Shown: positions 2,335 to 33,982, counted from the first letter of the stretch. The stretch: 64,000 bases of DNA from an uncultured Candidatus Saccharibacteria bacterium (GCA_964596615.1 CAZQUN010000004.1:432-64431), one strand, 5' to 3'. Numbers and translations: made by a program. Notes: a model not told the origin generated them from the sequence alone.

Positions 2335-2363
2335 TTGACAGATTTTACAGAATAAAATAAGAT
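2335..2363 (+). promoter_or_regulatory. Sigma-70-like promoter upstream of rplJ (TTGACA-N17-TAAGAT)
   Basis: A consensus -35 hexamer TTGACA sits at 2335-2340, separated by 17 nt from the -10-like hexamer TAAGAT. Confidence 0.4.
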
Positions 2364-2373
2364 TTATAGAGCT

Positions 2374-2433
2374 GTAGACAATAGGTGGCTTTAGCGGAAA
2401 TCCTATCGAGGCGAGTGCCTTTTTATTGTCTAC
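2374..2433 (+). promoter_or_regulatory. Possible rplJ-rplL (L10) leader RNA structure
   Basis: A perfect 10-bp inverted repeat (GTAGACAATA ... TATTGTCTAC) encloses a 40-nt GC-richer segment in the 5' UTR of rplJ. This is the position of the autoregulatory L10 leader in many bacteria. Confidence 0.35.
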
Positions 2434-2458
2434 ATATTTGTAGGCATTTTTTAATAGC

Positions 2459-2977
2459 ATGATTACTAAAGAAAAGAAAAAAGAAATAATTCAAGATTTA
2501 ATTGATAAACTTTCCCGCCAGAAATCAGTTGTCTTTTTTGACTATACTGGCCTGAAAGTCAACCAAAGCCAGGAATTAAGAAGCAAATTAAGACAAGAAG
2601 AAATCGATTGCCAGATTAGCAAAAAGACCCTAATTGACTTGGCCTTGGAAAAAGCCGGATTAAAAGATATCAAAGTCAAAGAATTAGCTGGTCAGATTGG
2701 TTTAGTTTTTGGATACAAAGACGAAATCTTACCAGCCAAAATCCTATATGATTTTTCAAAAGAAAATAAGGACCTTAAAATTATTTCCGGTTTAATTGAT
2801 GGTCAGTTTTTAGGAAACGAAGCTGTTCTTGAATTAGCCAAATTACCTTCCAAACAAGAATTGCTTTCAAAACTGATTGGCAGCATTTCATCTCCAGTGC
2901 TCGGATTACATAATACCTTACAAGGCAACCTGTCTAAATTAATTAATATATTTAAAAACCTAAAGTCAGAGGAATAA
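2459..2977 (+). CDS. rplJ: 50S ribosomal protein L10
   Basis: 172 aa. The N-terminus KEKKKEIIQDLIDKLSRQKSVVFFDYTGLKVNQSQELRSKLR is typical of L10, and the gene is followed by rplL. Confidence 0.85.
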   Translation: MITKEKKKEIIQDLIDKLSRQKSVVFFDYTGLKVNQSQELRSKLRQEEIDCQISKKTLIDLALEKAGLKDIKVKELAGQIGLVFGYKDEILPAKILYDFSKENKDLKIISGLIDGQFLGNEAVLELAKLPSKQELLSKLIGSISSPVLGLHNTLQGNLSKLINIFKNLKSEE

Positions 2978-3046: not shown

Positions 3047-3523
3047 ATGGCAGAAGAAAATAAGAAGGAAGAAGCCCCTAAAGAGGAGGCTCCTAAAAAA
3101 GAAGAGGCGCCAGCAGCACCTGAAAAAGAAGAAAAAAAAGAAGCTGAAGTGCCAAAGAAGTTCAAGGACTTAGTTAAACAGATTGAAGAACTAAGTGTTT
3201 TGGAATTAGCCGAATTAGTCAAAGTCCTGGAAGATAAGTTTGGTGTCAGCGCTCTGCCAATGGCGGCTGCTCCAGCTGCCGGGGTTGCTCCGGCTGAAAG
3301 CGGAGAAGAAAAAAGCATCTTTGATATCGAACTAAAAAGCGCCGGTGACCAAAAAATCAGTGTTATCAAAGTAGTTAAAGAAATTACCGATCAAGGATTA
3401 AAAGAAGCTAAAGAAATTGTTGATAGCGCTCCGAAGGTTATTAAACAGGGCGTTAAAAAAGAAGAAGCCGAAGAGATTAAAAAGAAACTAGAAGAAGCCG
3501 GCGCAACAGTAGAATTAAAATAG
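3047..3523 (+). CDS. rplL: 50S ribosomal protein L7/L12
   Basis: Has an Ala/Glu-rich hinge and the conserved C-terminal domain [27 protein letters not shown]...[19 protein letters not shown]. Confidence 0.9.
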
Positions 3524-3552
3524 ATTGGAGGGGTCGTTAATCTTTCTAAGTT

Positions 3553-4128
3553 ATGGCTAAAGAAATTTTAGAACAACTTTTCGACTCGCCAGTTAAAGTT
3601 AAATTACTTAAATTGTTTTTAAGGAATACAAGGGAATCCTTTGAATTGAAAGACATTATCAGGCGAACAAGAAGCAATCCTTCTATCTGTCGCAATCAGA
3701 TAAAGAAATTAGAAGGCATTAAACTGATAAAAGGCAAATTAAAAGGGAGAACCAAGACCTATACTATTAATTCTGACTTTGATTTTTACAACGAACTTAA
3801 AACCCTGATTCTTAAATCCAGCCCGGCTTCGAAGAATAAGCTGACTGGCCGGATAAGATCAATTGGAAGAATTAAATTAGGAATTATTTCCGGCATCTTT
3901 GTTGACAGCGATAGTTCAAGGGCAGATCTTTTAATAGTCGGAGATGCGATTAAAAGAAAGAAATTGTCAGATTTTCTAAAAGAATTAGAAGCTGAAGTTG
4001 GCAAAGAAATTGATTATGTTGTTTTATCAACAGCTGAGTTTAAATATCGCTATGATATGTTTGACCGGTTTATCCGTGACTTTTTGGAAAAACCGCATGA
4101 AAAATTAATAAACAGATTAAAAATTTAG
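3553..4128 (+). CDS. Hypothetical protein, possibly a winged-helix regulator
   Basis: 191 aa basic protein with no clear catalytic motifs. It sits where rpoB usually follows rplL. Confidence 0.3.
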   Translation: MAKEILEQLFDSPVKVKLLKLFLRNTRESFELKDIIRRTRSNPSICRNQIKKLEGIKLIKGKLKGRTKTYTINSDFDFYNELKTLILKSSPASKNKLTGRIRSIGRIKLGIISGIFVDSDSSRADLLIVGDAIKRKKLSDFLKELEAEVGKEIDYVVLSTAEFKYRYDMFDRFIRDFLEKPHEKLINRLKI

Positions 4129-4132
4129 GAGG

Positions 4133-4204
4133 GGGCGTGTAGCTCAGGGGTAGAGCGTCCCGTTCACATCGGGGAAGTCTCTGGTTCAAATCCAGATACG
4201 CCCA
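4133..4204 (+). tRNA. tRNA-Val (anticodon CAC)
   Basis: Folded by hand into a cloverleaf. The acceptor GGGCGTG/TACGCCC has one G-U pair. D-arm is GCTC-AGGGGTA-GAGC, anticodon stem TCCCG/CGGGG with loop TTCACAT, T-arm TCTGG-TTCAAAT-CCAGA, discriminator A. No CCA is encoded. Confidence 0.85.
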
Positions 4205-4215
4205 CTTAATAGGTT

Positions 4216-4650
4216 ATGATTATTACTCCGCATATGTTAGTTGGAACAGCGATTGGTATCCATTCGAATAATATTGGAATGGCTTTTTTGTTTGGTCTAA
4301 TCAGTCATTATTTAATTGATCTTCTGCCTCATTGGGAATATTTGGATGAAATTAAGATAAATAGGAGAAAAGATCTTATAAAAATACTTCTGGATTTTAT
4401 ACTCGGTCTTCTAGTTGTTTTGTTTTTAATCTGGAATCAGCCGGAAAAAATGATAATAGTTGGATTTGCTATTTTTGGTTCGCTCTTGCCCGATTTCCTT
4501 ATTTTCGGATACAAAACCTTTGGAACGAAGGTTTTGAAAATTCATTATAATTTTCATTATAAGATTCATTATTTCAAATATCTTTCTTTTTGGGCTGGTT
4601 TACCAGCGACTTTAATCGTTATAATAGTGTCTCTTTTTCTGATAATTTAA
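4216..4650 (+). CDS. Hypothetical integral membrane protein
   Basis: 144 aa with 4 predicted TM segments. Confidence 0.4.
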   Translation: MIITPHMLVGTAIGIHSNNIGMAFLFGLISHYLIDLLPHWEYLDEIKINRRKDLIKILLDFILGLLVVLFLIWNQPEKMIIVGFAIFGSLLPDFLIFGYKTFGTKVLKIHYNFHYKIHYFKYLSFWAGLPATLIVIIVSLFLII

Positions 4651-4790
4651 GCTGTGGAAAACTGAAAAATACACTATTTAAGAGTGTCTGGGGATAAAAT
4701 GTGGACAGAAAATAAGGAATTTTAGATAAATTGGCTTTAATAAGCCATTTTTTTATTTACCCCCTTAAAAATACGGGTAATATTAAGTGT

Positions 4791-6524: not shown

Positions 6525-8245
6525 AGAAGGATTGGCGGATTTACGTTCTAGTCATTATCATTTTCCTGATTGGGAGCGGGGTATTAACCCGCTTGTTTTC
6601 TCTCCAGATTCTTCGTTATGACTATTACAGCGCTTGGGCCAAAGACCAACATGAACTTTATCAGGAATTAGTTCCTCAAAGGGGGGAAATCTTTATGCAG
6701 GATTTCTCAGCCAAGAAAAGGAATAATCAGAATCAATATTATCCTTTGGCAATCAACAAGGAATTCCAGCAGGTCTATGCTATTCCTCAGGATATTGACC
6801 AGGACAAAATTGAAGAAACAGCTGAAAAACTTTCTTCTCTTCTTGATTTGGATAAAGAAATAATTTTGAGCCGGATTAGTAAACCAGATGATCCTTACGA
6901 GCCTTTAAGGCACAAGGTTGAGCAGGAAATTGCTGACCAGGTAAAAGAACTTGATATTTCCGGGATAAAATTAGGGCCGGAAATCTGGCGGTATTATCCC
7001 AACGATGAATCAACTTGTCATTTAATCGGTTTTGTTGGCATGAGCGAAAAAGGGAACATTGGCCAGTACGGATTGGAAAGATATTATCAGGATGAATTAG
7101 GAGGCAAGGCTGGTTTTGTTGCCGGGCAAAAAGACACCGCTGGCTATTGGATCCCTTCCTTAAGAGAGGATTTGGAACCAGCCGAAGACGGAGCAGACCT
7201 TATTCTGACCATTGACCAGAATATCCAGTTCAGAGCAGAAAGAGAATTAGAAAAAGTCATTGAAAAATGGCAGGCAGAAGCCGGAACAATTATTGTCCTC
7301 GAACCGGAAACAGGAGCAATCAGGGCAATGGCCAATTGGCCGACTTTTAACCCAAACCAATACATGAAGGTTAAAGAAATTGATTCTTTTCTTAATCCTT
7401 CAGTTCAGAAAGTTTACGAACCAGGATCCGTTTTCAAAGCCATTACCATGGCAGCCGGATTAGACAGCGGCAAGATTACTCCAGAGACAACATATTTCGA
7501 CGAAGGAAGAATAACAATCAAAGGAAGTTTTATCAGCAATGTTGACGGCCGAACCTATGATTATCAGACCATGACTCAAGTTCTTGAAAAATCAATTAAT
7601 ACCGGGGCAGTTTTTGTCCAACAGGAAATTGGCCAGGAAATTTTCGCTGACTATGTTCAGAGATTCGGTTTTGGTCAGACAACCAAGGCTGATTTAATCG
7701 GAGAGGTTAAAGGCAATATCTCTAATCTTTTTACCGGCAGAGAAATCAATTTAGCCACAATTTCATTTGGCCAGGGAATTACCGTTACGCCTTTATCAAT
7801 GCTTTCAGCTTTTTCAGCCATTGCTAATGATGGAAAACTAATGCGTCCCTTTGTTGTTGAAAAAACAATCTGGCCGGATGGTAGGGAAAAAACCACCCAA
7901 CCAGAAGTATTAAAAGAAACAATCTCTTCTGAATCAACCAGGGAATTAACCAAAATGCTTGTCAGCGCCGTTGAAAACGGCTATGGTAGACCTGCTCGGA
8001 TTAGCGGTTATGATATTGCCGGTAAGACCGGAACAGCCCAGATAGCTGATTTGGAAAAGGGTGGCTATTCCGAAGAAACCATTCATAGCTTTATTGGCTA
8101 CGCCCCTGCTTTTGACCCTAAATTTGCTATTTTAATAAAGGTTGATAAGCCGAAGGGAATTCGCTTTGCTTCTGATTCGGTCAGCCCGGTTTTTAGGGAA
8201 CTAGCCGAATACATTATTAACTATTTAGAAATACCTCCGCAATGA
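6521..8245 (+). CDS. ftsI: Penicillin-binding protein 2 / FtsI transpeptidase
   Basis: 574 aa with a TM anchor and the SxxK (SVFK), SxN (SIN) and KTGT motifs. It sits in the dcw position. Confidence 0.85.
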   Translation: MKKDWRIYVLVIIIFLIGSGVLTRLFSLQILRYDYYSAWAKDQHELYQELVPQRGEIFMQDFSAKKRNNQNQYYPLAINKEFQQVYAIPQDIDQDKIEETAEKLSSLLDLDKEIILSRISKPDDPYEPLRHKVEQEIADQVKELDISGIKLGPEIWRYYPNDESTCHLIGFVGMSEKGNIGQYGLERYYQDELGGKAGFVAGQKDTAGYWIPSLREDLEPAEDGADLILTIDQNIQFRAERELEKVIEKWQAEAGTIIVLEPETGAIRAMANWPTFNPNQYMKVKEIDSFLNPSVQKVYEPGSVFKAITMAAGLDSGKITPETTYFDEGRITIKGSFISNVDGRTYDYQTMTQVLEKSINTGAVFVQQEIGQEIFADYVQRFGFGQTTKADLIGEVKGNISNLFTGREINLATISFGQGITVTPLSMLSAFSAIANDGKLMRPFVVEKTIWPDGREKTTQPEVLKETISSESTRELTKMLVSAVENGYGRPARISGYDIAGKTGTAQIADLEKGGYSEETIHSFIGYAPAFDPKFAILIKVDKPKGIRFASDSVSPVFRELAEYIINYLEIPPQ

Positions 8246-9510
8246 GAAATATTCTACAATATATTCTAAAAATTCTGGCTAGAATAGTTTTGTACCGATA
8301 CAAGCCGGAAATAGTTGCTGTAACCGGCAGTGTTGGCAAGACCAGTACTAAGGAAGCGATATATCAGGTTTTGGAGAAATTCTTCCGGGTCAGACAGAAT
8401 AAAAGAAATTACAATAATGAGATTGGAGTGCCTTTGACAATAATTGGTCTTGAAACCGGCGGCAGTTCATTAATTGCCTGGCTGAAAAACTTTTTGCTTG
8501 CTCTTAGGACAATCCTGTGGAGAGGCGATTATCCAGAAATTCTGGTTTTGGAAATGGGCATTGATAAGCCCGGAGATATGGAATATTTAATGAGTTTTGT
8601 TCCGGTTGATGTTGCTGTTATCACCGCTATTGGTGAGTTTCCTGTTCATCTTGAATTTTTTCCTGAAAAGGGAAAATTAGTTCAGGAAAAGGCCCTTTTG
8701 GCTAAATCGCTTGATGGAGAAGGTCAGGCAGTTCTAAATTACGACGATTTATCTGTTCGAATGATTGCTGATGAGTTGCCCAGGGGATTGAAAATAGTTC
8801 AATATGGGTTTGAACAGGGAGCCAATCTTCAGATTTCCAATTTTAACTTTTCCATTTCTGATTTAGACAAAAAAAATTTTGGCATAAGTTTTAAATTAGA
8901 ATACGGAGGAAGTATTGTTCCGGTCCAAGTCAGAGGAGCAACCGGAAAACAACACGCCTTTACTCTTGCCGCCGCCGCCGGAGTCGGACTATATTTCGGC
9001 CTTAACCTGGTTGAGATTTCAGGAGTTTTTAAAGAACATAGACCCTTACCCGGCAGAACCAATCTCTTAAAAGGAATTAAACAAACCTGGATTATTGATG
9101 ATAGTTACAATGCTTCGCCTTTGGCAACTTTAACTTCCCTGGAAATTCTAGACCAATTTTCAGAAGGAAAGAGAAGGAAAATAGCGGTCTTAGGCGATAT
9201 GCTTGAATTAGGGGGCAAGACCGAGGAAGGTCATCGTCAGGTCGGACAAAAGGTAAAAGAAACTGCTGATTTGCTTTTTACCGTTGGCAGCCGGGCTATC
9301 TTTATCGCTGACCAAGCCAGGAAAGCAGGAATGAAAAAAGAAAATATTTTTGAATTCCAAACTTCAAAACAAGCCGGACTAGCAGTCCAAAAACAACTAG
9401 AACCCCAGGATATTATCCTGGTTAAGGGATCACGTTCAATCCATATGGAAGAAACTACAAGAGAAATTATGGCTCATCCAGAAAAAGCTGGGCAATTATT
9501 GGTAAAATAG
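8242..9510 (+). CDS. murF: UDP-N-acetylmuramoyl-tripeptide--D-alanyl-D-alanine ligase MurF (Mur ligase family)
   Basis: Has the P-loop VTGSVGKTSTKE and the MurF-like motif IIDDSYNASP, and follows ftsI. Confidence 0.7.
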   Translation: MRNILQYILKILARIVLYRYKPEIVAVTGSVGKTSTKEAIYQVLEKFFRVRQNKRNYNNEIGVPLTIIGLETGGSSLIAWLKNFLLALRTILWRGDYPEILVLEMGIDKPGDMEYLMSFVPVDVAVITAIGEFPVHLEFFPEKGKLVQEKALLAKSLDGEGQAVLNYDDLSVRMIADELPRGLKIVQYGFEQGANLQISNFNFSISDLDKKNFGISFKLEYGGSIVPVQVRGATGKQHAFTLAAAAGVGLYFGLNLVEISGVFKEHRPLPGRTNLLKGIKQTWIIDDSYNASPLATLTSLEILDQFSEGKRRKIAVLGDMLELGGKTEEGHRQVGQKVKETADLLFTVGSRAIFIADQARKAGMKKENIFEFQTSKQAGLAVQKQLEPQDIILVKGSRSIHMEETTREIMAHPEKAGQLLVK

Positions 9511-18642: not shown

Positions 18643-20013
18643 TTATTCCTCCAATCTTTTCTCCAGATTCCTGAAACTAACCTGGCTTTCATTGAAATAT
18701 AATTCAGCTCGGCCAGTTGGACCATTACGATGCTTGGCGATAATAATATCAGCAATATTTTTCCGGTCGGTATTAGGCCTTTCCTTATCCTCCCGATAGA
18801 TGAAAATCACCACATCAGCGTCCTGTTCTAAACTTCCACTTTCTCTTAAATCAGAAAGTTTGGGAATAGCCGGGGAGCGGGATTCAACAGAACGGTTGAG
18901 TTGGGAAATGGCTAAAACGGGAACTTCAAGTTCTCTGGCCAAAGATTTCAAACTTCGGGATATTTCTGTCATTTGCTGAACGGGCGAATCAAAATTATTC
19001 CTCGGCTGAATCATTTGGATGTAATCGATAATAATTAAACCAAGATTGTTTTGAGCCTGAAGTCGGCGAGCCATGGTTCTCATCTGTAAAATAGTCGGAG
19101 AAGGAGTATCATCAATATAGATTGAAGCATCCGATAATTCATCCAGCGCTCTCTGGATTTTTTCAAAATCATTATCCGGTCCTTCGCCGGATAAACGACC
19201 GGTCCGTATTCTCCAGGAATCAACTTCTGCCTGAGAACTAATTAACCGGTCAACTAATTGTTCCTTGGACATTTCAATACTAAAAACGGCAACTGGTGTT
19301 TTTTCCTTAATCGAAGTATGTCGAGCAATATTAAGAGCAAGCGAGGTTTTTCCAAGAGAAGGGCGGGCGCCTAAAATAATTAAATCGGATTTCTGAAAAC
19401 CAGAAAGATAGTTGTCAATATCAGCAAATCCGGTCGGGATACCTCTTGTGGCTTCTTCGCCCCGGTGCAACTTATCAATTCTTTCAAAAGCGCTTTCTAA
19501 AGCATCTTTAACCGGCATGAATTTCTGACTGACTGATCTTTGAGAAACACTAAATATCTTCTGTTCAGATTCATCGATCAGGGTTTCAACATCATCTGGT
19601 TCCTGATAACTTAATTGACTAATTTCATTAGAAGCTCCGATTAAATCACGAAGGGCTTTTTTGTTTTTAACAATTTTGGCGTAGTGGGTAATATGGGCGG
19701 CAGTTGGAACGGAATTAACCAGGTCAGTCAAATAGGTTGCTCCGCCAATTTCTTTTAATTTCTTTTTCTCTTCTAATCGGTTGGTTAAACTTAATAAATC
19801 AATTGGTTCATTTTTTTCATAAAGATCAACCATGGCTTGATAAATGCTGGTATGGATCCCTCGGTAGAAATCATCAGCAACAAGAATATCAGCTATTTTA
19901 ATAATAGCGTCTTTGTCCAACATCAAGGCTCCCAGAACAGATTGTTCGGCTTCAATATTCTGAGGCGGTAGTTTGCCTTCTATTTTAACTGATGGTTGTG
20001 TTTTTTCTGCCAT
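18643..20013 (-). CDS. dnaB: Replicative DNA helicase DnaB (canonical copy)
   Basis: 456 aa with Walker A GARPSLGKTS, and the conserved motifs SIEMS, IIDYIQMI, ISQLNR, LRESGSLEQDADVV and AKHRNGPTG. Confidence 0.9.
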   Translation of the reverse strand: MAEKTQPSVKIEGKLPPQNIEAEQSVLGALMLDKDAIIKIADILVADDFYRGIHTSIYQAMVDLYEKNEPIDLLSLTNRLEEKKKLKEIGGATYLTDLVNSVPTAAHITHYAKIVKNKKALRDLIGASNEISQLSYQEPDDVETLIDESEQKIFSVSQRSVSQKFMPVKDALESAFERIDKLHRGEEATRGIPTGFADIDNYLSGFQKSDLIILGARPSLGKTSLALNIARHTSIKEKTPVAVFSIEMSKEQLVDRLISSQAEVDSWRIRTGRLSGEGPDNDFEKIQRALDELSDASIYIDDTPSPTILQMRTMARRLQAQNNLGLIIIDYIQMIQPRNNFDSPVQQMTEISRSLKSLARELEVPVLAISQLNRSVESRSPAIPKLSDLRESGSLEQDADVVIFIYREDKERPNTDRKNIADIIIAKHRNGPTGRAELYFNESQVSFRNLEKRLEE

Positions 20014-28166: not shown

Positions 28167-28715
28167 ATGGAAATCCGTTCATTTCTGGCAAATCTCCATG
28201 TTGGCGCTGCTTCGGGCTGGGATTTATTCATCGCCCTGGTTTTTTTAATTGCCGTTCTAATTTATGGATTTTTCCTCGGGCGCAACCGAATGATAATTCT
28301 TTTAATCAGCAGCTATTTTTCCTTTTTAATTGTTAAATCTCTGCCCTGGCAGAAACTATCATCTTTGGGTTGGTTGGGTATTAACCAGGATCCATCTTCT
28401 TCTTCCAGAATTCTGATTTTTATCGCAATTATTCTTTTGCTCTATTTCCTAATCCCTCGTAGTGTTTTAAGCTCGCCTCTGCGAATTAAAAAAAGAGGAA
28501 ACGCTTCCTGGATTCAACTATTCATTCTTAGTGTTGTCCAGGTTGGATTACTGGCTATGGTTATTCTTTCGTTTCTTCCTCCTGAAGTCATTTCAAACCT
28601 TGGTTCGGTTATTAAAAAGATATTCGTTGGGCCGGAAGCTGAATTTGTCTGGGTAACTATTCCAATACTAGCCGTTGTCCTAATGCGGAGAAAAAAGGAA
28701 ATCGGGAAGAAATAG
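28167..28715 (+). CDS. Hypothetical membrane protein
   Basis: 182 aa with multiple TM helices. Confidence 0.35.
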   Translation: MEIRSFLANLHVGAASGWDLFIALVFLIAVLIYGFFLGRNRMIILLISSYFSFLIVKSLPWQKLSSLGWLGINQDPSSSSRILIFIAIILLLYFLIPRSVLSSPLRIKKRGNASWIQLFILSVVQVGLLAMVILSFLPPEVISNLGSVIKKIFVGPEAEFVWVTIPILAVVLMRRKKEIGKK

Positions 28716-28786
28716 GGGAAGGTAAAACTTATCAAGCTTTTGGCTTGATTTTTATTTCATTTTTAGGTAAAATATGTGGGTATTAT

Positions 28787-28860
28787 GGGGGTATAGCTCA
28801 GTGGTAGAGCAGAGGCCTTTTAAGCCTTTGATGGGGGTTCGATTCCCTCTACCCCTACCA
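28787..28860 (+). tRNA. tRNA-Lys (anticodon UUU), CCA encoded
   Basis: Acceptor GGGGGTA/TACCCCT, D-arm GCTC-AGTGGTA-GAGC, anticodon stem GAGGC/GCCTT with loop CTTTTAA, T-arm GGGGG-TTCGATT-CCCTC, then ACCA. A -10-like TATTAT lies immediately upstream. Confidence 0.85.
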
Positions 28861-28864
28861 TGAT

Positions 28865-28907
28865 AAAAACCCGCTTGTCTGCATTTTTCGCAGAGAGCGG
28901 GTTTTTG
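28865..28907. terminator. Bidirectional rho-independent terminator between tRNA-Lys and the convergent helicase gene
   Basis: AAAAACCCGCTtgTCTGCatttttcGCAGAgAGCGGGTTTTT forms a long interrupted stem flanked by an A-run and a T-run. Confidence 0.7.
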
Positions 28908-28924
28908 GTTTCAGGCTTTGAAAC

Positions 28925-30289
28925 CTATTCAGTTTCTCCCTCCTCCCAAGAGAGATATTCCCCCCAGAAAGTAAGGGGTATATTGCCAGGCGTCCCTCCT
29001 TTGCCGACAATAATCTCGGCATCTCTTTCGGGTTTACCTTCTTCTTCAATCTTTTTTGGTTCGTAAGCATTTGGTCGGTAGAGCAAGAGGATTTTATTGC
29101 TTAACTCTTCGGCTGCTTTACTGAATAAATCAGAAGTTTTGGGGCGCTTATCTTCTCTGTCTTCTAGTTTTCGATTGAGCTGGCTTGAAATAATGACCGG
29201 TATTTTTATCTGATAGCAGAAGGGCTTGATTTTTTCAATGATGAAATCAGCTTGTTCTAGGGGGTGCTTAAATTCTTTGCCAGGCCAAAAAAGTTCTTGT
29301 AAATTTTCAATAATCAGCAATCCAGGGCCCTGATTAAGTTTGTCTATTTTTTCTAGGGCATTTATTATCTCTATCTGGAGGGCCGGCACAGCAATCCTTT
29401 GTTTAATTACAATGCTGTGAATTGGCGCGTCATTGATCTGTTGATGGCATCGATCCATCATTTCCAATTCATCTTTTTCTGTTATTCTGCCTCCCCCTAT
29501 CTTATTAAGGGGGATTTTACATCTTTGGGCATCCAGACGACGGTAGATTATCGGCATTACCATCTGTGCCCCGCAATAAACAACCGGACTACCTTCATCA
29601 ATAGCCGTATGAGACAGAAACTCAAGGACTAGGGCTGTTTTTCCCATTCCTGTTCTGCCGCCGACAATTGTTAGCTCATAAGGCATAAATCCCCCAATTG
29701 CGCGATTAAGCGATTCAAAAGGCGTCTCTTTGCTAAAAGAAAAGTAGTCAAAAAGTTCTTCAGTAGAGAGCTCCAGCTTGTTGGCGCCACTTCCTTTTGC
29801 CGCTTTTTTCATTATTTCCGAGGGCATCTCAATGACTTTGGCAACCAGTTCATCTACCCTGACACCAGGGGTAAAGGCAGTTCTAGCTAATTCATTGGTT
29901 TTCTCTAAGACCACTCTCTTTACCGCGTCTCCTTTGATAATCTTGGCGTGATGAGCGACATTTTCCGTTGCCGGCGTTCCGTCGTGGAGTATGACAAGAT
30001 AACTGGCTCCACCAACACTTTCGAGTTCGCCTTTCTTTTTGAGTTGATTGGTCAGAGTAAGAAGGTCAATCGGCGTTTCCTCGTTAGTCAGATCAATCAT
30101 GGCAGCAAAAATTTTTTGATGGGCGGGCTTGTAGAAATCTTCGGCCTCTAGGATTTGCCAGGCCGTAAGAAATTTTTTGTTCTCCTGTAAGATTCTCCCA
30201 ATGACTGATCCTTCAGCTTCAGGACTTTGGGGTGGCAGAGAGAACTGGGGAAAATCTTTGGCTGTCTTATCTTTCGCTTTTTCTCTCAT
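28925..30289 (-). CDS. Divergent DnaB-family replicative helicase paralog, translationally coupled to the upstream reverse transcriptase
   Basis: 454 aa with a DnaB N-terminal domain (EAEGSVIGRIL ... IDLLTLTNQL), Walker A GGRTGMGKTA, Walker B-like LLIIENLQ, ISSQLNR and a KGGTPG loop. The start overlaps the RT stop by 23 nt, and a GGAGG RBS lies inside the RT 3' end. Confidence 0.75.
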   Translation of the reverse strand: MREKAKDKTAKDFPQFSLPPQSPEAEGSVIGRILQENKKFLTAWQILEAEDFYKPAHQKIFAAMIDLTNEETPIDLLTLTNQLKKKGELESVGGASYLVILHDGTPATENVAHHAKIIKGDAVKRVVLEKTNELARTAFTPGVRVDELVAKVIEMPSEIMKKAAKGSGANKLELSTEELFDYFSFSKETPFESLNRAIGGFMPYELTIVGGRTGMGKTALVLEFLSHTAIDEGSPVVYCGAQMVMPIIYRRLDAQRCKIPLNKIGGGRITEKDELEMMDRCHQQINDAPIHSIVIKQRIAVPALQIEIINALEKIDKLNQGPGLLIIENLQELFWPGKEFKHPLEQADFIIEKIKPFCYQIKIPVIISSQLNRKLEDREDKRPKTSDLFSKAAEELSNKILLLYRPNAYEPKKIEEEGKPERDAEIIVGKGGTPGNIPLTFWGEYLSWEEGETE

Positions 30290-31334
30290 TTTCTGCCTCC
30301 TTTATCTTTTCTCGGTATAAAATCCAGTACTCTCTTACCCAGCCGGGCCAGTGTTGTTCTTGGCCATAGATTTGCCGAATGTACATAGCAATGCCGATAA
30401 CATATTTTTTGGGATAGGCGTCGTCATATTTCCAAGCCATAAAGAAAATTCGGCGATAGGCATTCTTTTTCCGATGGTTGATATGAATTTTCTGATGTTT
30501 CTTACCAACAATCGTCAGCCCGAGCATATGAGGGGTGGTTTTCCCCAGATTATCTTTTGTTTTCTCTGGCTTAACGGAAAAGCCAGATTTGGTCGGGATT
30601 GCCAGTAATTCTTCTTTGATTTCAGGTGAAATTATTTCCTTTGAGGCGAAGTTGAAATCGTCGGCGTAGACAAACCATTTTATATTGTGTGTTTGGCAAA
30701 TCCGGTCCATCTCACAACACATGGGCTCGTAAACAAGATTTAGCAAAGCCGGGCTGCACGACGCTCCTTGAGGCAGGCGACGCTGTTCATTATAATGATA
30801 GGTTACCAACCAGGATAAAGGATCAATTAGGGCCTTATTAATCCCTAATTTTTCAAGGGATTGTTTTACCATTTCCTTTGTAATACTGGGAAAAGCATCG
30901 GCTATATCAAAGCTGAAATAATGAACGTTTCCCAAAAGTGTCTGTGTTGCTTTAAGAGTATTTCTTTTTTTAACAAACCCATATGCATTTTGATGGGCGG
31001 GCCTAAGTTCAACCAATGTTTTTCCGATTGCTCTGAGCGCTTTTTGGACTATCGGATGCGGAGCAAGGATTTTTCTTGGCTTTTTTCCTTTCCGCAAAGT
31101 AAATCCTCTGAAGCCATGAGAAAATGTTTCTTGGACTGATTTGCCTTTAACCATAATTTCGTCCTCGAATTCTACTCTGCCTATTATCTTCCATGCCTTT
31201 CTCAAGACCTTTTTCGTAGTTTTTAGTTTCTCTGCTAGTGCTTTCAGTGCCCAGGAAAACTGGACATCAAGAGAAACATCTTCCATTGACCGAAACTCAT
31301 ATTTTTCCAGCGTTTCTGGTTTTTCTGAATACAT
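30267..31334 (-). CDS. Reverse transcriptase (RT motifs 1, 2, 4 and 5 present; 355 aa, no maturase/endonuclease domain)
   Basis: Motif 1 RKILAPHP, motif 2 FDIADAFPSI, motif 4 LPQGASCSPALLNL (QGxxxSP type) and motif 5 FVYADDF are present. Motifs 6/7 read KPEKTK ... MLGLTIVG. A GGAGG RBS lies 7 nt upstream of the ATG. Confidence 0.8.
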   Translation of the reverse strand: MYSEKPETLEKYEFRSMEDVSLDVQFSWALKALAEKLKTTKKVLRKAWKIIGRVEFEDEIMVKGKSVQETFSHGFRGFTLRKGKKPRKILAPHPIVQKALRAIGKTLVELRPAHQNAYGFVKKRNTLKATQTLLGNVHYFSFDIADAFPSITKEMVKQSLEKLGINKALIDPLSWLVTYHYNEQRRLPQGASCSPALLNLVYEPMCCEMDRICQTHNIKWFVYADDFNFASKEIISPEIKEELLAIPTKSGFSVKPEKTKDNLGKTTPHMLGLTIVGKKHQKIHINHRKKNAYRRIFFMAWKYDDAYPKKYVIGIAMYIRQIYGQEQHWPGWVREYWILYREKIKEAENERKSER

Positions 31335-31382
31335 TTTAGCCTCCTATGTTATCCTTAAGGGTTATAAGTTTTTAAAGAATTT

Positions 31383-31707
31383 GCCCCGCGCCAGGTTTGT
31401 CTTCACTAGCGCGAGGACTTTCAGGCAGTTGGGTGATATCAGGACGGCTTTTCCCTTCGCTTTATCAACCTCAAGCCGGGCAGGAAAGGTCGAGGAGCGA
31501 GGGGTGCCGAGGAGAGGAGAGGATTCGTCCGGGTTCCGGCGGAATAAAGTATCTATCAAACCGGAGGGGTCCGGGGTGTCCCCGGGCTCTCCTTGCTCTC
31601 ATGTTCTCCGCTGCCTGAGCTCAGAAAGCGGTTTAAGACCTATTTCGAAACATAAGATATTTCCGAAACGAACCTTGTGAGAGCCCAAGATTCTTCGGTC
31701 TTGTTTT
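31383..31707. ncRNA. GC-rich structured element (candidate RT-associated ncRNA or independent structured RNA), strand unresolved
   Basis: About 320 nt is far more GC-rich than its surroundings. It contains a 13-bp imperfect hairpin (31563-31592), a purine tract GAGGAGAGGAGAGGA complementary to a downstream CTCTCCTT/CTCTC tract, a 10-bp palindrome CTGAGCTCAG, and a plus-strand hairpin plus T4 at its 3' edge. No credible long ORF overlaps it. Confidence 0.5.
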
Positions 31708-31815
31708 ATCCCATTCGCCTGTTTGATTATTTCTAACACAAAAGAGATTTTTTCGCAAGAAAGTCAATTAATAGTGTTTATCCACCTTATTTATGCTAGA
31801 ATATTGGATAGGAAA

Positions 31816-32262
31816 ATGTATCATATAGCGATAATGAGGAAATCCTGGGGTCTCTTGCCCAAGATTTTAACCAAAGAAAAGACAATTGAATCACGCTGGT
31901 ATATGAATAAATATTCTCCTTGGGACAGGATTAAAAAAGGGGATATTGTTTATTTTGAGAATTCTGGTGAACCGGTTAGTATTAAAACAGAAGTTTCAAA
32001 GATTATTCAGTATTCGGATTTAACGCCAGTCAAAGCAAAACAAATTCTTCAAAAATATGGCGCTAAAGATGGCCTGGGTATTAATGAAATTGACAAATAT
32101 TATCAGATGTTTAAAGGTAAAAAATATTGCTTGTTAATTTTTCTTAAAAACCCGCAGGGAACTAAATCTTTTGATATTGATAAGACCGGATTTGGAGCGA
32201 TGGCGGCCTGGATAGTAGTTGATAATATAAAAAGAGTTAAGAGAAATCTTTTTACAGTTTAA
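31816..32262 (+). CDS. ASCH (PUA-like) domain protein
   Basis: Carries the ASCH signature ILTKEKTIESRW (GxKxxExR-like). The start is trimmed to MYHIAIMRK at 31816. Confidence 0.5.
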   Translation: MYHIAIMRKSWGLLPKILTKEKTIESRWYMNKYSPWDRIKKGDIVYFENSGEPVSIKTEVSKIIQYSDLTPVKAKQILQKYGAKDGLGINEIDKYYQMFKGKKYCLLIFLKNPQGTKSFDIDKTGFGAMAAWIVVDNIKRVKRNLFTV

Positions 32263-32308
32263 TTGGTCAAAGCTTTTCGTTTTGAAGAATATAGGGTAAT
32301 ATATTAGT

Positions 32309-33982
32309 ATGGATCCGCAAACACACATCGACCCGGGACAACAAATAAATAACTTCCAACCAGAACAAAATCCTAAAAGATTAAATTTTCCTTTCTGGGT
32401 TTGGGTTGTAGTAGTAACCGCTATTTTAGGCCTAGGCGGTTATTTTATTTATCAACATTTCTTTTCTGAAACGATAACAGTCCTTGATTCGACAGACCAA
32501 TGGCAAACTTACCACAATGAAGAATTAGGGTTTAGCTTTAAATATCCAAGGGATTATGGAGAAATGGTGTTTTCAATAAACTCCGGGGAAACAGGAGAAA
32601 TGTTTTATGGGAATTTCTCTAAAAATCCTGATATCCAATTTGGAGGAATAACATACGATTATACTGCTGGTATGGGAGGACAATTCATAGGTACACAAGG
32701 ATATACACAAGATAATGATAAATATTATTTTAACTTTGTTGCTGATGAAAAAATAGAAGTAACTCCGTCGAGATTTATTCAAATAAATGAAGGGGCAGAT
32801 GAAGCCCTAGTCATCGAAGATCAAGATATGGGTTTGCTAATTAATCCTAGCGGGAAGGGAGCTTTAATTAACCTGAAAGATGATAGATTTTCTGGAATTG
32901 GCTTTATTTATTACAATATTCCTCAGGATGAAACCTATCTTTTTGATGACATCATTTCTAGCTTTAAGTTTATTGAGCCCACCGATACATCTAATTGGCA
33001 AACATATCGTAACGAGGAATATCGATTTGAGGTTTTAATGCCTGGGGGTTGGTATACCAGCGAAGAATATTATCAAAATATTGACCAGCAAATGATTAGG
33101 TTTTCGAATTATCCGTGGGGGTCATTTGAAAAATCGGAAACCCCGGAGGATTTTCTTGCTTTCTTCATTTCAACTTATCCAAAATACAAAGAAGATGACT
33201 ACGAAAAAATTAAAGAAATAGAAGAAGAAATGAAAGAGTTTTCAAACGAAAAATTTGAATACAGCATTGAAAATAAATGGCTGATAAATCTTTATGTTAT
33301 TTCTGAAAGAACTTCTCAAAAAGATAATATTACCTGGGATGTTATCTTGCCTTACGCCAAAGCGTTTTTAACGGGCGAAAATTATAAATATTATTTCTAT
33401 CCTTCTTCGCCGGTTCCAACACTAGACAAAGGACAAGAAAAGGAATTAGATATTTTAAGAGGGATGTTAAAGTCATTTAAATTTATTAAACTAAGCAATC
33501 TGTCTGATGAAGAAATATATCAGAATAATGAATATAAAATTAGATTTGAAAAACCGTTTCTTTTTGGCAGACAGGGCGATGTCAGAGAAAAGGAGAATAA
33601 AATATTTGTTTGCCTGGACCCTTCAACAGAAGATACTTCTTCCTGTCAGTATGTAGAAATTTTTGAAAAGAGCCCGGGACAGACTTTGAAAGAAGCCATA
33701 GAAGAACAGTTTCTTAAAAGTTATCCTTCTGATAAGTGCTGGTTTGAAGAAATAAGAAGGGAGAATAATCCAAAAGGATATCAATACGCGACTATAAGTT
33801 ATCCTACCCCTTGGTATGATAATCGACAGTATTGTCCCTCTTATAGCGCGGCAAATGGTGTGAGTTATTTTATGATGGACCCACGCTATCCCGACCGTTT
33901 TGTTTACTTTAGCATCGGACAGTACTATATTGGGACTAGGAACAGAGAATCCTGGCAGGATACATTTGAATTTATTGATTAA
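32309..33982 (+). CDS. Hypothetical membrane-anchored extracellular protein with internal WQTYxNEE repeats
   Basis: 557 aa with an N-terminal TM helix and repeated W-Q-T-Y-x-N-E-E-x-x-F motifs. Rich in Tyr/Asn. Confidence 0.4.
   Translation: MDPQTHIDPGQQINNFQPEQNPKRLNFPFWVWVVVVTAILGLGGYFIYQHFFSETITVLDSTDQWQTYHNEELGFSFKYPRDYGEMVFSINSGETGEMFYGNFSKNPDIQFGGITYDYTAGMGGQFIGTQGYTQDNDKYYFNFVADEKIEVTPSRFIQINEGADEALVIEDQDMGLLINPSGKGALINLKDDRFSGIGFIYYNIPQDETYLFDDIISSFKFIEPTDTSNWQTYRNEEYRFEVLMPGGWYTSEEYYQNIDQQMIRFSNYPWGSFEKSETPEDFLAFFISTYPKYKEDDYEKIKEIEEEMKEFSNEKFEYSIENKWLINLYVISERTSQKDNITWDVILPYAKAFLTGENYKYYFYPSSPVPTLDKGQEKELDILRGMLKSFKFIKLSNLSDEEIYQNNEYKIRFEKPFLFGRQGDVREKENKIFVCLDPSTEDTSSCQYVEIFEKSPGQTLKEAIEEQFLKSYPSDKCWFEEIRRENNPKGYQYATISYPTPWYDNRQYCPSYSAANGVSYFMMDPRYPDRFVYFSIGQYYIGTRNRESWQDTFEFID

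Follow-up and report, generated by a model that had tools for sequence, protein, structure and literature searches.

A stretch of DNA of 64,000 nt from an uncultured Candidatus Saccharibacteria bacterium (GCA_964596615.1 CAZQUN010000004.1:432-64431; hereafter the window, with positions counted from its first letter) carries on its minus strand a compact three-part module, made of a structured non-coding RNA (ncRNA) of about 359 nt, a reverse transcriptase (RT) of 355 aa and a DnaB-family pseudo-helicase of 454 aa. We are confident that its three parts (ncRNA, RT and pseudoDnaB) form a functional unit of the retron kind, which probably represents a retron-like defence system of a new type. The RNA occupies positions 31365-31723 (GC 0.52; delimited by GC profile, folding and comparison of 20 homologous loci), the RT gene positions 30267-31334 (an open reading frame, ORF, with the Pfam RVT_1 domain) and the DnaB-like gene positions 28925-30289 (an ORF with the Pfam DnaB N-terminal and DnaB_C domains). 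Retrons are themselves ncRNA-RT-effector systems, many of which are toxin-antitoxin-like defences (PMC8632793).

The ncRNA-RT-DnaB arrangement is well past chance and recurs in every related locus examined. Loci were gathered via exact-protein look-ups, GTDB genomes and metagenomes; wherever the sequence of a family locus continues downstream, tblastn places a DnaB-like gene directly on the 3' side of the RT gene, either overlapping it or within about 110 nt of it, and each complete locus holds one copy of the same RNA upstream of the RT. Identity to the window ranges from 43 to 61% for the RT and from 31 to 55% for the DnaB-like protein, with one module copy per contig examined. An initial annotation of the window, made from its sequence, had proposed an RT-based system of precisely this composition, with a DnaB paralog as partner, and the three-part synteny is indeed kept in all relatives. 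It had also placed the start of the DnaB-like gene within the end of the RT gene; the ATG (30289) and its ribosome-binding site (RBS, GGAGG at 30296-30300) do lie there, and by this 23-nt overlap the two genes are translationally coupled. The RT and the DnaB-like protein were shown to co-diverge: over 17 loci, their pairwise identities are correlated (r=0.79, Mantel 0/2000). Both genes are under purifying selection, with a ratio of nonsynonymous to synonymous substitution rates (dN/dS) of 0.1-0.2 where dS is unsaturated.

The module, strictly conserved as a unit, has a sporadic distribution among bacteria of the candidate phyla radiation (CPR). Its hosts are mostly Patescibacteria (Saccharibacteria, Moranbacteria/Moraniibacteriota and Parcubacteria); family loci are also carried by metagenome-assembled genomes labelled Aminicenantes and Bdellovibrionales (L006, L008 and L009), labels that reflect either mis-binned contigs or horizontal transfer. 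Flanking genes differ completely between loci: tyrosyl-tRNA synthetase and a penicillin-binding protein, EF-Tu and ribosomal proteins, or DUF456, and DnaK/DnaJ in the window. No family member was found among IMG/VR viral contigs, where the RNA core motif is also absent, nor among INPHARED phages and PLSDB plasmids, which returned only distant RT matches (<31%). One pair of loci stands out: the RTs of L001 (6001-7035) and L006 (from 2412 on) are 84% identical with a dS of 0.41, and their DnaB-like proteins (7019-8356 and ~3460-4773, respectively) are 58% identical with a dS of 1.41, values that suggest, at the sequence level, that the partner gene has been exchanged or recombined within the family.

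The GC-rich element upstream of the RT gene is a real, conserved structured RNA. GC content reaches 0.585 at 31400-31599 against 0.31-0.44 in the surroundings, and a GC-rich block lies 100-400 nt upstream of the RT in almost all loci; the multi-hairpin element that the initial annotation had set at 31383-31707 is confirmed, with its limits now at 31365-31723. Homologous RNAs measure 254-466 nt over the 20 loci (359 nt in the window) and end 16-80 nt before the RT start. Folded alone, the window RNA has a minimum free energy of -131.7 kcal/mol (z=-4.39 relative to shuffles), and helices P1-P6 are recovered. A search of Rfam, proposed in the initial annotation for the element and here run over 28700-32400, returned the tRNA only, both at gathering thresholds and at E<=10: the GC-rich RNA belongs to no family found there, and group II intron RNA is not present in this region.

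The window RNA is built of a closing helix P1, a 5' domain (P2-P6) that is conserved, a middle that varies, a hairpin on the 3' side and, as its tail, a conserved UUCUUUAAAAA. P1 pairs a 5' arm, ACAGGCGAAUGGG (31710-31722, minus strand), with a 3' arm, CCCAACUGCCUG (31422-31433, minus strand), which is preceded by a conserved CAC; the arms are analogous to retron a2 and a1, respectively. With duplexfold, 19 of the 20 loci show the helix at the corresponding position, built from differing arm sequences, and cognate arms pair better (mean -19.9 kcal/mol) than non-cognate ones (-11.4 kcal/mol). Compensatory variants are seen both in P1 (CAGACAG/CUGUCUG, GAGCGGGUA/UACCCGCUC, GAGUGAG/CUCACUC and CGCGGGC/GCCCGCG) and in its inner part (UGGG/CCCA, UGAG/CUCA, GAC/GUC and GGC/GCC). 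In the conserved 5' domain (31566-31702, minus strand), P2 encloses hairpins P3 and P4, followed by P5 (CCGCUUUCUGA..GGCAGCGG), P6 (CCGGGGACACCCCGG) and then ACCCC. RNAalifold, run on this domain in 19 loci, yields 33 pairs, 26 of them with compensatory changes; 92.1% of the cells are paired, against 78.4% in shuffled alignments (0/500), and this value drops to 33-55% once pairing partners are displaced by 1-3 columns. A covariance model of P5-P6 has a single match in the 64-kb window (31563-31634, minus strand; 69.6 bits, E 2.8e-15) and exactly one strong match per family locus (39-85 bits), on the RT strand and always upstream of the gene, including in loci outside its training set; it has no match in non-family RT loci.

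The middle of the RNA is of a different nature. The variable region (31447-31565, minus strand) cannot be aligned between distant loci, spans about 65-200 nt between P6 and the P1 3' arm across the family, holds one to five predicted hairpins, and is a candidate template (msd-like) segment. A pyrimidine-rich tract is seen within it at 31480-31530 (minus strand; 17 of 20 nt, CCUCUCCUCUCCUC...), which is common to L001, L006 and L016-L018 (17-20 of 20) and not to more distant loci; a universal pyrimidine tract was thus rejected, this feature being confined to the subgroup nearest the window. A pairing of the purine-rich J5/6 strand with the variable region was also rejected (z about 0). Just before the RT ribosome-binding site lies the last part of the RNA, a 3' hairpin with a conserved motif (31365-31418, minus strand); the hairpin itself (31381-31418) is absent in about a third of the loci, and the motif UUCUUUAAAAAcUUA / UUCUUUAAAAA (31365-31379, minus strand) is nearly universal at the RNA 3' end. 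This motif could pair with a conserved GAAGAA located between P2 and P3 (31691-31696, minus strand), forming a candidate pseudoknot. Apparent co-changes of the two are seen in a few loci.

The RT (Pfam RVT_1, E=4e-20) contains in its translation the motifs KPRKILAPHP, FDIADAFPSI, LPQGASCSPALLNL and YADD, and a GGAGG ribosome-binding site (31340-31344) precedes its ATG at 31334, motifs and ribosome-binding site being as described in the initial annotation. Across 25 aligned family members, neither YADD nor any other catalytic motif varies; the active site is intact, and the RT looks active. By sequence, it is a member of a small isolated clade: about 70 clusters were recovered at 41-61% identity among 5.8 billion proteins searched, followed by a cliff to E=5e-13, and an exhaustive HMMER search of 1.84 billion 50%-identity representatives returned two full-length members and two fragments (817, 251, 111 and 109 bits), beyond which scores fall to 89 bits. 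Outside the clade, the proteins that come next are genuine retron RTs, with 230-385 bits on their own type models.

By sequence and predicted fold, the RT comes closest to retron RTs. In PADLOC, the top 25 models are all retron RTs, with RT_III-A first (5.8e-36) and RT_IX and RT_II-A also present, and the NCBIfam scores are 111.5 bits for retron_St85_RT (cut-off 235) and 46.9 bits for the group II maturase model TIGR04416 (cut-off 300). The family profile, compared to sequences of the Protein Data Bank (PDB), matches retron Ec86 (4.8e-23), then Ec83, Kva2, Ec67, Ec78 and Eco8, with group II maturases at 5e-7 or weaker. Foldseek, queried with an AlphaFold model of the RT (pLDDT 87), lists 17 retron RTs on top (template modelling score, TM, 0.60-0.75) and ranks group II RTs, DRT9, DRT2 and G2L4 lower, DRT2 and DRT9 being found at ranks 24-26 with a TM of 0.48-0.51. 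The RT had been described as retron/group-II-like rather than of the type found in diversity-generating retroelements (DGRs), and hidden Markov models, PDB profile and predicted fold all agree on retron RTs as the nearest ones.

The third component belongs to the DnaB family (Pfam DnaB N-terminal 4.9e-31, DnaB_C 1.1e-36); on the equivalog model TIGR00665, it scores 213.5 bits, under the cut-off of 385.25, whereas the housekeeping dnaB of the window (18643-20013) reaches 555.9 bits. The initial annotation had reported this canonical copy, which is intact as expected and whose strand is here corrected to minus; the module protein is thus an accessory copy, as had been proposed, and the alternative of a degenerate canonical gene is excluded. 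We compared motifs between 22 locus-derived DnaB-like proteins and the canonical DnaB of the window and, separately, E. coli DnaB. The family keeps Walker A (GKT) and largely keeps SQLNR. The catalytic Glu of SLEM is replaced by Gln or another residue in 18 of the 22 proteins; Walker B, IDYLQ in canonical proteins, is IENLQ in all; the LRESG signature of the LRESG(S)IEQDAD loop is lost in all, the remaining loop being degenerate in most; the QR of KQRNGP, which we take to be the DnaB arginine finger, is deleted in all; and the segment after the linker has a 12-residue deletion. The window protein accordingly has Gln for the catalytic Glu, EN for DY in Walker B, no LRESG and no arginine finger. 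The change from DY to EN, the QR deletion and the LRESG loss occur together in 22/22 locus-derived proteins and in the 15/15 best database matches; 103 of the 105 other matches listed, which are canonical-type DnaBs, keep all three canonical motifs.

The fold, in turn, is well preserved. The AlphaFold model (pLDDT 86.6) has the full two-domain DnaB architecture, with N-terminal domain, linker and RecA-like C-terminal domain, and Foldseek retrieves DnaB structures at E 1e-31, with TM up to 0.80-0.82 (Vibrio cholerae DnaB). Nucleotide is probably still bound by the protein, which may also form DnaB-like assemblies, and ATP hydrolysis or canonical translocation is unlikely. Loss of catalytic residues under purifying selection points to a pseudo-helicase and not to a spare replicative helicase. 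The "helicase paralog" of the initial annotation thus stands as regards fold and family, and probably not as regards motor activity. In short, the protein resembles DnaB (TIGR00665; structures 4ESV, 7T20 and 6T66) by its two-domain fold, Walker A GKT and SQLNR, and differs from it by lacking the catalytic set beyond Walker A and by its score under the cut-off. PADLOC gave no match for this protein or for the upstream ORF.

How does the module compare to known systems? Solved retron examples include Ec86/Eco1, Ec78/Eco7, Ec83, Eco8 and Ec67/Eco2, and Mestre et al. reportedly distinguished, in 2020, retron types I-XIII. The module is like retrons in its order (ncRNA, RT and a tightly linked accessory gene in one operon), in its RT, nearest retron RTs by sequence and predicted fold, and in its RNA, located upstream of the RT on the same strand, with ends joined by a covarying inverted-repeat helix resembling a1/a2. 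It is unlike them in its RNA, which has a greater size (254-466 nt), five helices in its conserved domain and several hairpins in its variable part instead of a single msd hairpin; in its partner, a catalytically degenerate DnaB, a class outside the described retron effectors; and in its hosts, which are Patescibacteria. Among defence RTs of the UG class, DRT2 and DRT9 likewise have a structured RNA of several hundred nt encoded upstream of the RT; their fold is a weaker match to the module RT (TM 0.48-0.51), and the DnaB-like gene is invariably linked in the module, whereas, to our knowledge, DRT2 and DRT9 need no accessory protein. On present evidence, the module is best filed as retron-like, but it departs from the described retron types in several of their defining features.

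The closest published case is TXI_noncan_h, a group of type XI-like, protease-less retron RTs from Bacillota and Bacteroidota, mostly of the gut, with a DnaB_C protein adjacent in 20/29 loci, mostly at position +1, and an ncRNA located 22-104 bp upstream and described as a compact double stem-loop (23 bp) (N. Toro, bioRxiv May 2026, doi 10.64898/2026.05.14.725207). That preprint is computational only, and its tables contain no Patescibacteria (doi 10.64898/2026.05.14.725207). The module shares with TXI_noncan_h an RT with an adjacent DnaB_C-containing protein and an ncRNA upstream, and differs in the RNA (254-466 nt, six or more helices) and in the hosts, mostly Patescibacteria. The window RT scores 83 bits on the type XI models (RT-Protease_XI) against 122 on III-A. 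The TXI_noncan_h report covers neither the window clade nor its RNA, nor the catalytic degeneration seen in the DnaB partner, and our literature search on DnaB-like proteins with RT and ncRNA, and on retrons with Patescibacteria/CPR, found no description of the window clade. The initial annotation had held the whole combination to be undescribed; this no longer applies to DnaB_C-retron RT pairs as such, and it stands for the Patescibacteria clade and its RNA.

A second lineage was found outside the clade. P0079, the nearest RT outside the clade (32% identity to the window RT), again has a DnaB N+C gene after it, as does P0345, the only relative of P0079; P0080, which was checked next, has no DnaB link. 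In L043 (3711-6570), the DnaB N+C gene is more degenerate, with Walker A only and without SQLNR, LRESG or arginine finger; the leader is about 470 nt long and ends in a similar hairpin and a UUUUCUCAAAAAUUUAA-like motif, and the covariance model of P5-P6 has no match in it. With 118 bits on the type XI model versus 120 on II-A for the P0079 RT, this lineage may, on sequence grounds, bridge the window clade and TXI_noncan_h. Taken with the TXI_noncan_h preprint, it indicates that the RT-DnaB pairing is recurrent and barely described.

As a working mechanism, we tentatively propose a defence by analogy with retrons, one we consider possible and somewhat doubtful, in which the pseudo-DnaB would be a replication blocker set free upon infection. 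The RT would attach to its own RNA at the conserved 5' domain and copy part of the variable region into a small complementary DNA (cDNA), as a retron RT does with its msr/msd; the resulting RT-RNA-cDNA particle would keep the pseudo-helicase in an inactive complex until disturbed by a phage infection. The freed pseudo-DnaB, unable to translocate, would then titrate the partners of DnaB (primase, loader, clamp-loader) or poison DnaB rings, and the replication block would lead to abortive infection. An unlikely but distinct version is a replisome decoy, in which the RT would make a platform of single-stranded DNA (ssDNA), with the dead DnaB ring assembling on or beside the cDNA and imitating a loaded helicase; phage helicase loaders, primases or DnaB inhibitors would be trapped on this dummy fork, or their binding would fire the system. 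If true, immunity would operate via mimicry of the replication fork and not via an enzymatic toxin, a defence logic so far undescribed. As to the best explanation of the whole, in which the three parts make up a retron-like module of Patescibacteria and the DnaB paralog mimics the replisome as effector or sensor, we regard it as slightly short of an even call.

Several observations weigh against a retron-like defence module of this kind. Retrons have an NAxxH motif before RT motif 3, which is not kept here: Ec86 NNATPH aligns to kkAves in the family, with only the Ala (A129, invariant) in common. The VTG of RT motif 7, a retron signature (PMC8632793), is not kept either, as Ec86 kVTGL aligns to h[LMI]LGL in the family, where Gly is retained and Val and Thr are replaced. 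The window RT scores at most 122 bits on any retron type model, against 230-385 for true members; because of these low scores and of the missing VTG and NAxxH, the RT is retron-related yet outside the 13 described retron types. On the RNA side, a single long msd-like hairpin was sought in the variable region and rejected, since the hairpins (one to five) are not conserved, and the branching G that retrons keep next to a2 has no assignable counterpart: no conserved unpaired G follows P1, the sole near-invariant G (G12) being paired within this helix. Production of cDNA or multicopy single-stranded DNA (msDNA) by the module is inferred by analogy with retrons. A catalytically dead protein would be an unusual toxin, and the LRESG loop contacts ssDNA in DnaB, so that its loss argues against a simple threading of cDNA through the ring. 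The flanks consist of housekeeping genes, with no defence or mobile-element gene in the loci examined, and the contrast between L001 and L006 (84% identity for the RT, 58% for the DnaB-like protein) indicates a modular rather than rigid coupling.

Other explanations have to be considered alongside the retron-like reading. The DnaB look-alike could be a guard, i.e. a sensor bound by phage helicase loaders or DnaB inhibitors that would switch on the RT, whose cDNA would be toxic or interfering. The paralog keeps the whole surface architecture of DnaB, N-terminal domain included, with catalysis lost, as a decoy needs; phage loaders such as lambda P bind DnaB in solved structures; and an RT product acting as effector has a precedent in DRT2/DRT9, whose structures the RT model resembles at lower rank. 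The RT is nonetheless nearer to retron RTs (TM 0.60-0.75) than to DRT2/DRT9 (0.48-0.51), and the lack of conservation in the variable region leaves no common product sequence in sight; we deem this scenario improbable, though worth keeping in mind. It is quite unlikely, in our opinion, that the module is a cryptic retroelement or episome, whose RT would copy the RNA to DNA and whose DnaB paralog, loaded on this copy, would bring in primase and the replisome, be it for second-strand synthesis, for replication or for repair. DnaB proteins do normally act on ssDNA at replication forks, the two genes are translationally coupled, and the presence of the module at unrelated chromosomal sites in different genomes implies mobility or transfer; but the helicase catalytic residues are lost, the module has neither an integrase nor other element genes, and neither att sites nor origin-like repeats, and it is absent from IMG/VR, INPHARED and PLSDB and present in one copy per contig examined.

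The position of the RNA in the 5' untranslated region of the operon would also suit a cis-regulatory leader, i.e. a riboswitch or attenuator controlling the expression of the RT and DnaB-like genes, with the RT using other templates; in about two thirds of the loci, the RNA indeed ends in a GC-rich hairpin followed by a motif that contains U, at 16-80 nt ahead of the RT start. The hairpin, however, is absent in the remaining third and has no proper U-tract, an RNA of 250-470 nt that combines a closing helix with a hypervariable segment inside fits RT template RNAs better than known leaders, and the RNA core occurs exclusively with the window RT clade, so we give this possibility little credit. 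Least credible of all is a degenerate group II intron or DGR, to which one could be led by the RVT_1 domain of the RT and by the fact that some 80% of CPR RTs belong to DGRs (PMC8632793). Even at E<=10, Rfam shows no intron RNA domain, and the maturase model score (46.9 bits) is far from its 300-bit cut-off; the RT has a QGxxxSP motif, which is not DGR-type. A DGR repeat was searched for by comparing the RNA region to the 64-kb window (blastn) and rejected, as matches did not exceed 14 nt at 100% identity or 21 nt at 90%. Together, these results effectively refute an intron or DGR.

The RNA by itself adds a new, well-supported structured family, strongly covarying, about 250-470 nt in length and absent from Rfam. 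If the retron-like reading is true, the module would bring a new class of effector or sensor to retron-like systems, a pseudo-helicase mimicking the replisome, and genome-reduced CPR bacteria, whose RTs are mostly those of DGRs, would also carry retron-like modules. An RT without VTG and NAxxH that is nevertheless associated with an a1/a2-like RNA puts to the test which of the retron features self-primed cDNA synthesis really needs, and compact RT-RNA pairs such as that of the window are candidate tools for ssDNA production in cells. The window clade, the second lineage and the 2026 report on gut bacteria together suggest that DnaB mimics are recurrently linked to reverse transcription.

The module is bounded on both sides by predicted transcription signals. 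A sigma-70-type promoter was identified by reading the sequence at 31729-31758 (minus strand; TTGCGA, 17-nt spacer, TG-n-TAGAAAT), with a transcription start predicted near 31723; it was missed by a consensus scanner because its -10 box is non-canonical, and an alignment shows its counterpart, TTGACA-17-TAnnAAT, at the same position upstream of the RNA in most related loci. At the other end, a bidirectional hairpin resembling an intrinsic terminator (28865-28906, both strands; A5-CCCGCUUGUCUGC-loop-GCAGAGAGCGGG-U5), the plus-strand half of which was flagged by the scanner, closes the module and separates it from tRNA-Lys(UUU) (28787-28860, plus strand), a neighbour outside the module. The initial annotation had seen in this tRNA gene a hotspot for acquired DNA. 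No att-like direct repeat or integrase was found at tRNA-Lys in the window, and the flanks are DnaK/DnaJ, unknowns, HIT and aminoacyl-tRNA synthetase genes; the hypothesis of an island acquired at tRNA-Lys therefore lacks direct support. Within the DnaB-like gene, 20 nt (29077-29096) are 75% identical to part of the D-arm and anticodon stem of tRNA-Lys (28803-28822), a resemblance that is probably due to chance.

Two ORFs of 148 and 557 aa (31816-32262 and 32309-33982, plus strand) diverge from the module promoter; they have no match in Pfam, NCBIfam or PADLOC and are not kept beside the module in other loci. Elsewhere in the window, the region 2354-2462 (plus strand) matches the Rfam ribosomal protein L10 leader (44.6 bits, for a gathering score of 44), an ordinary housekeeping feature.

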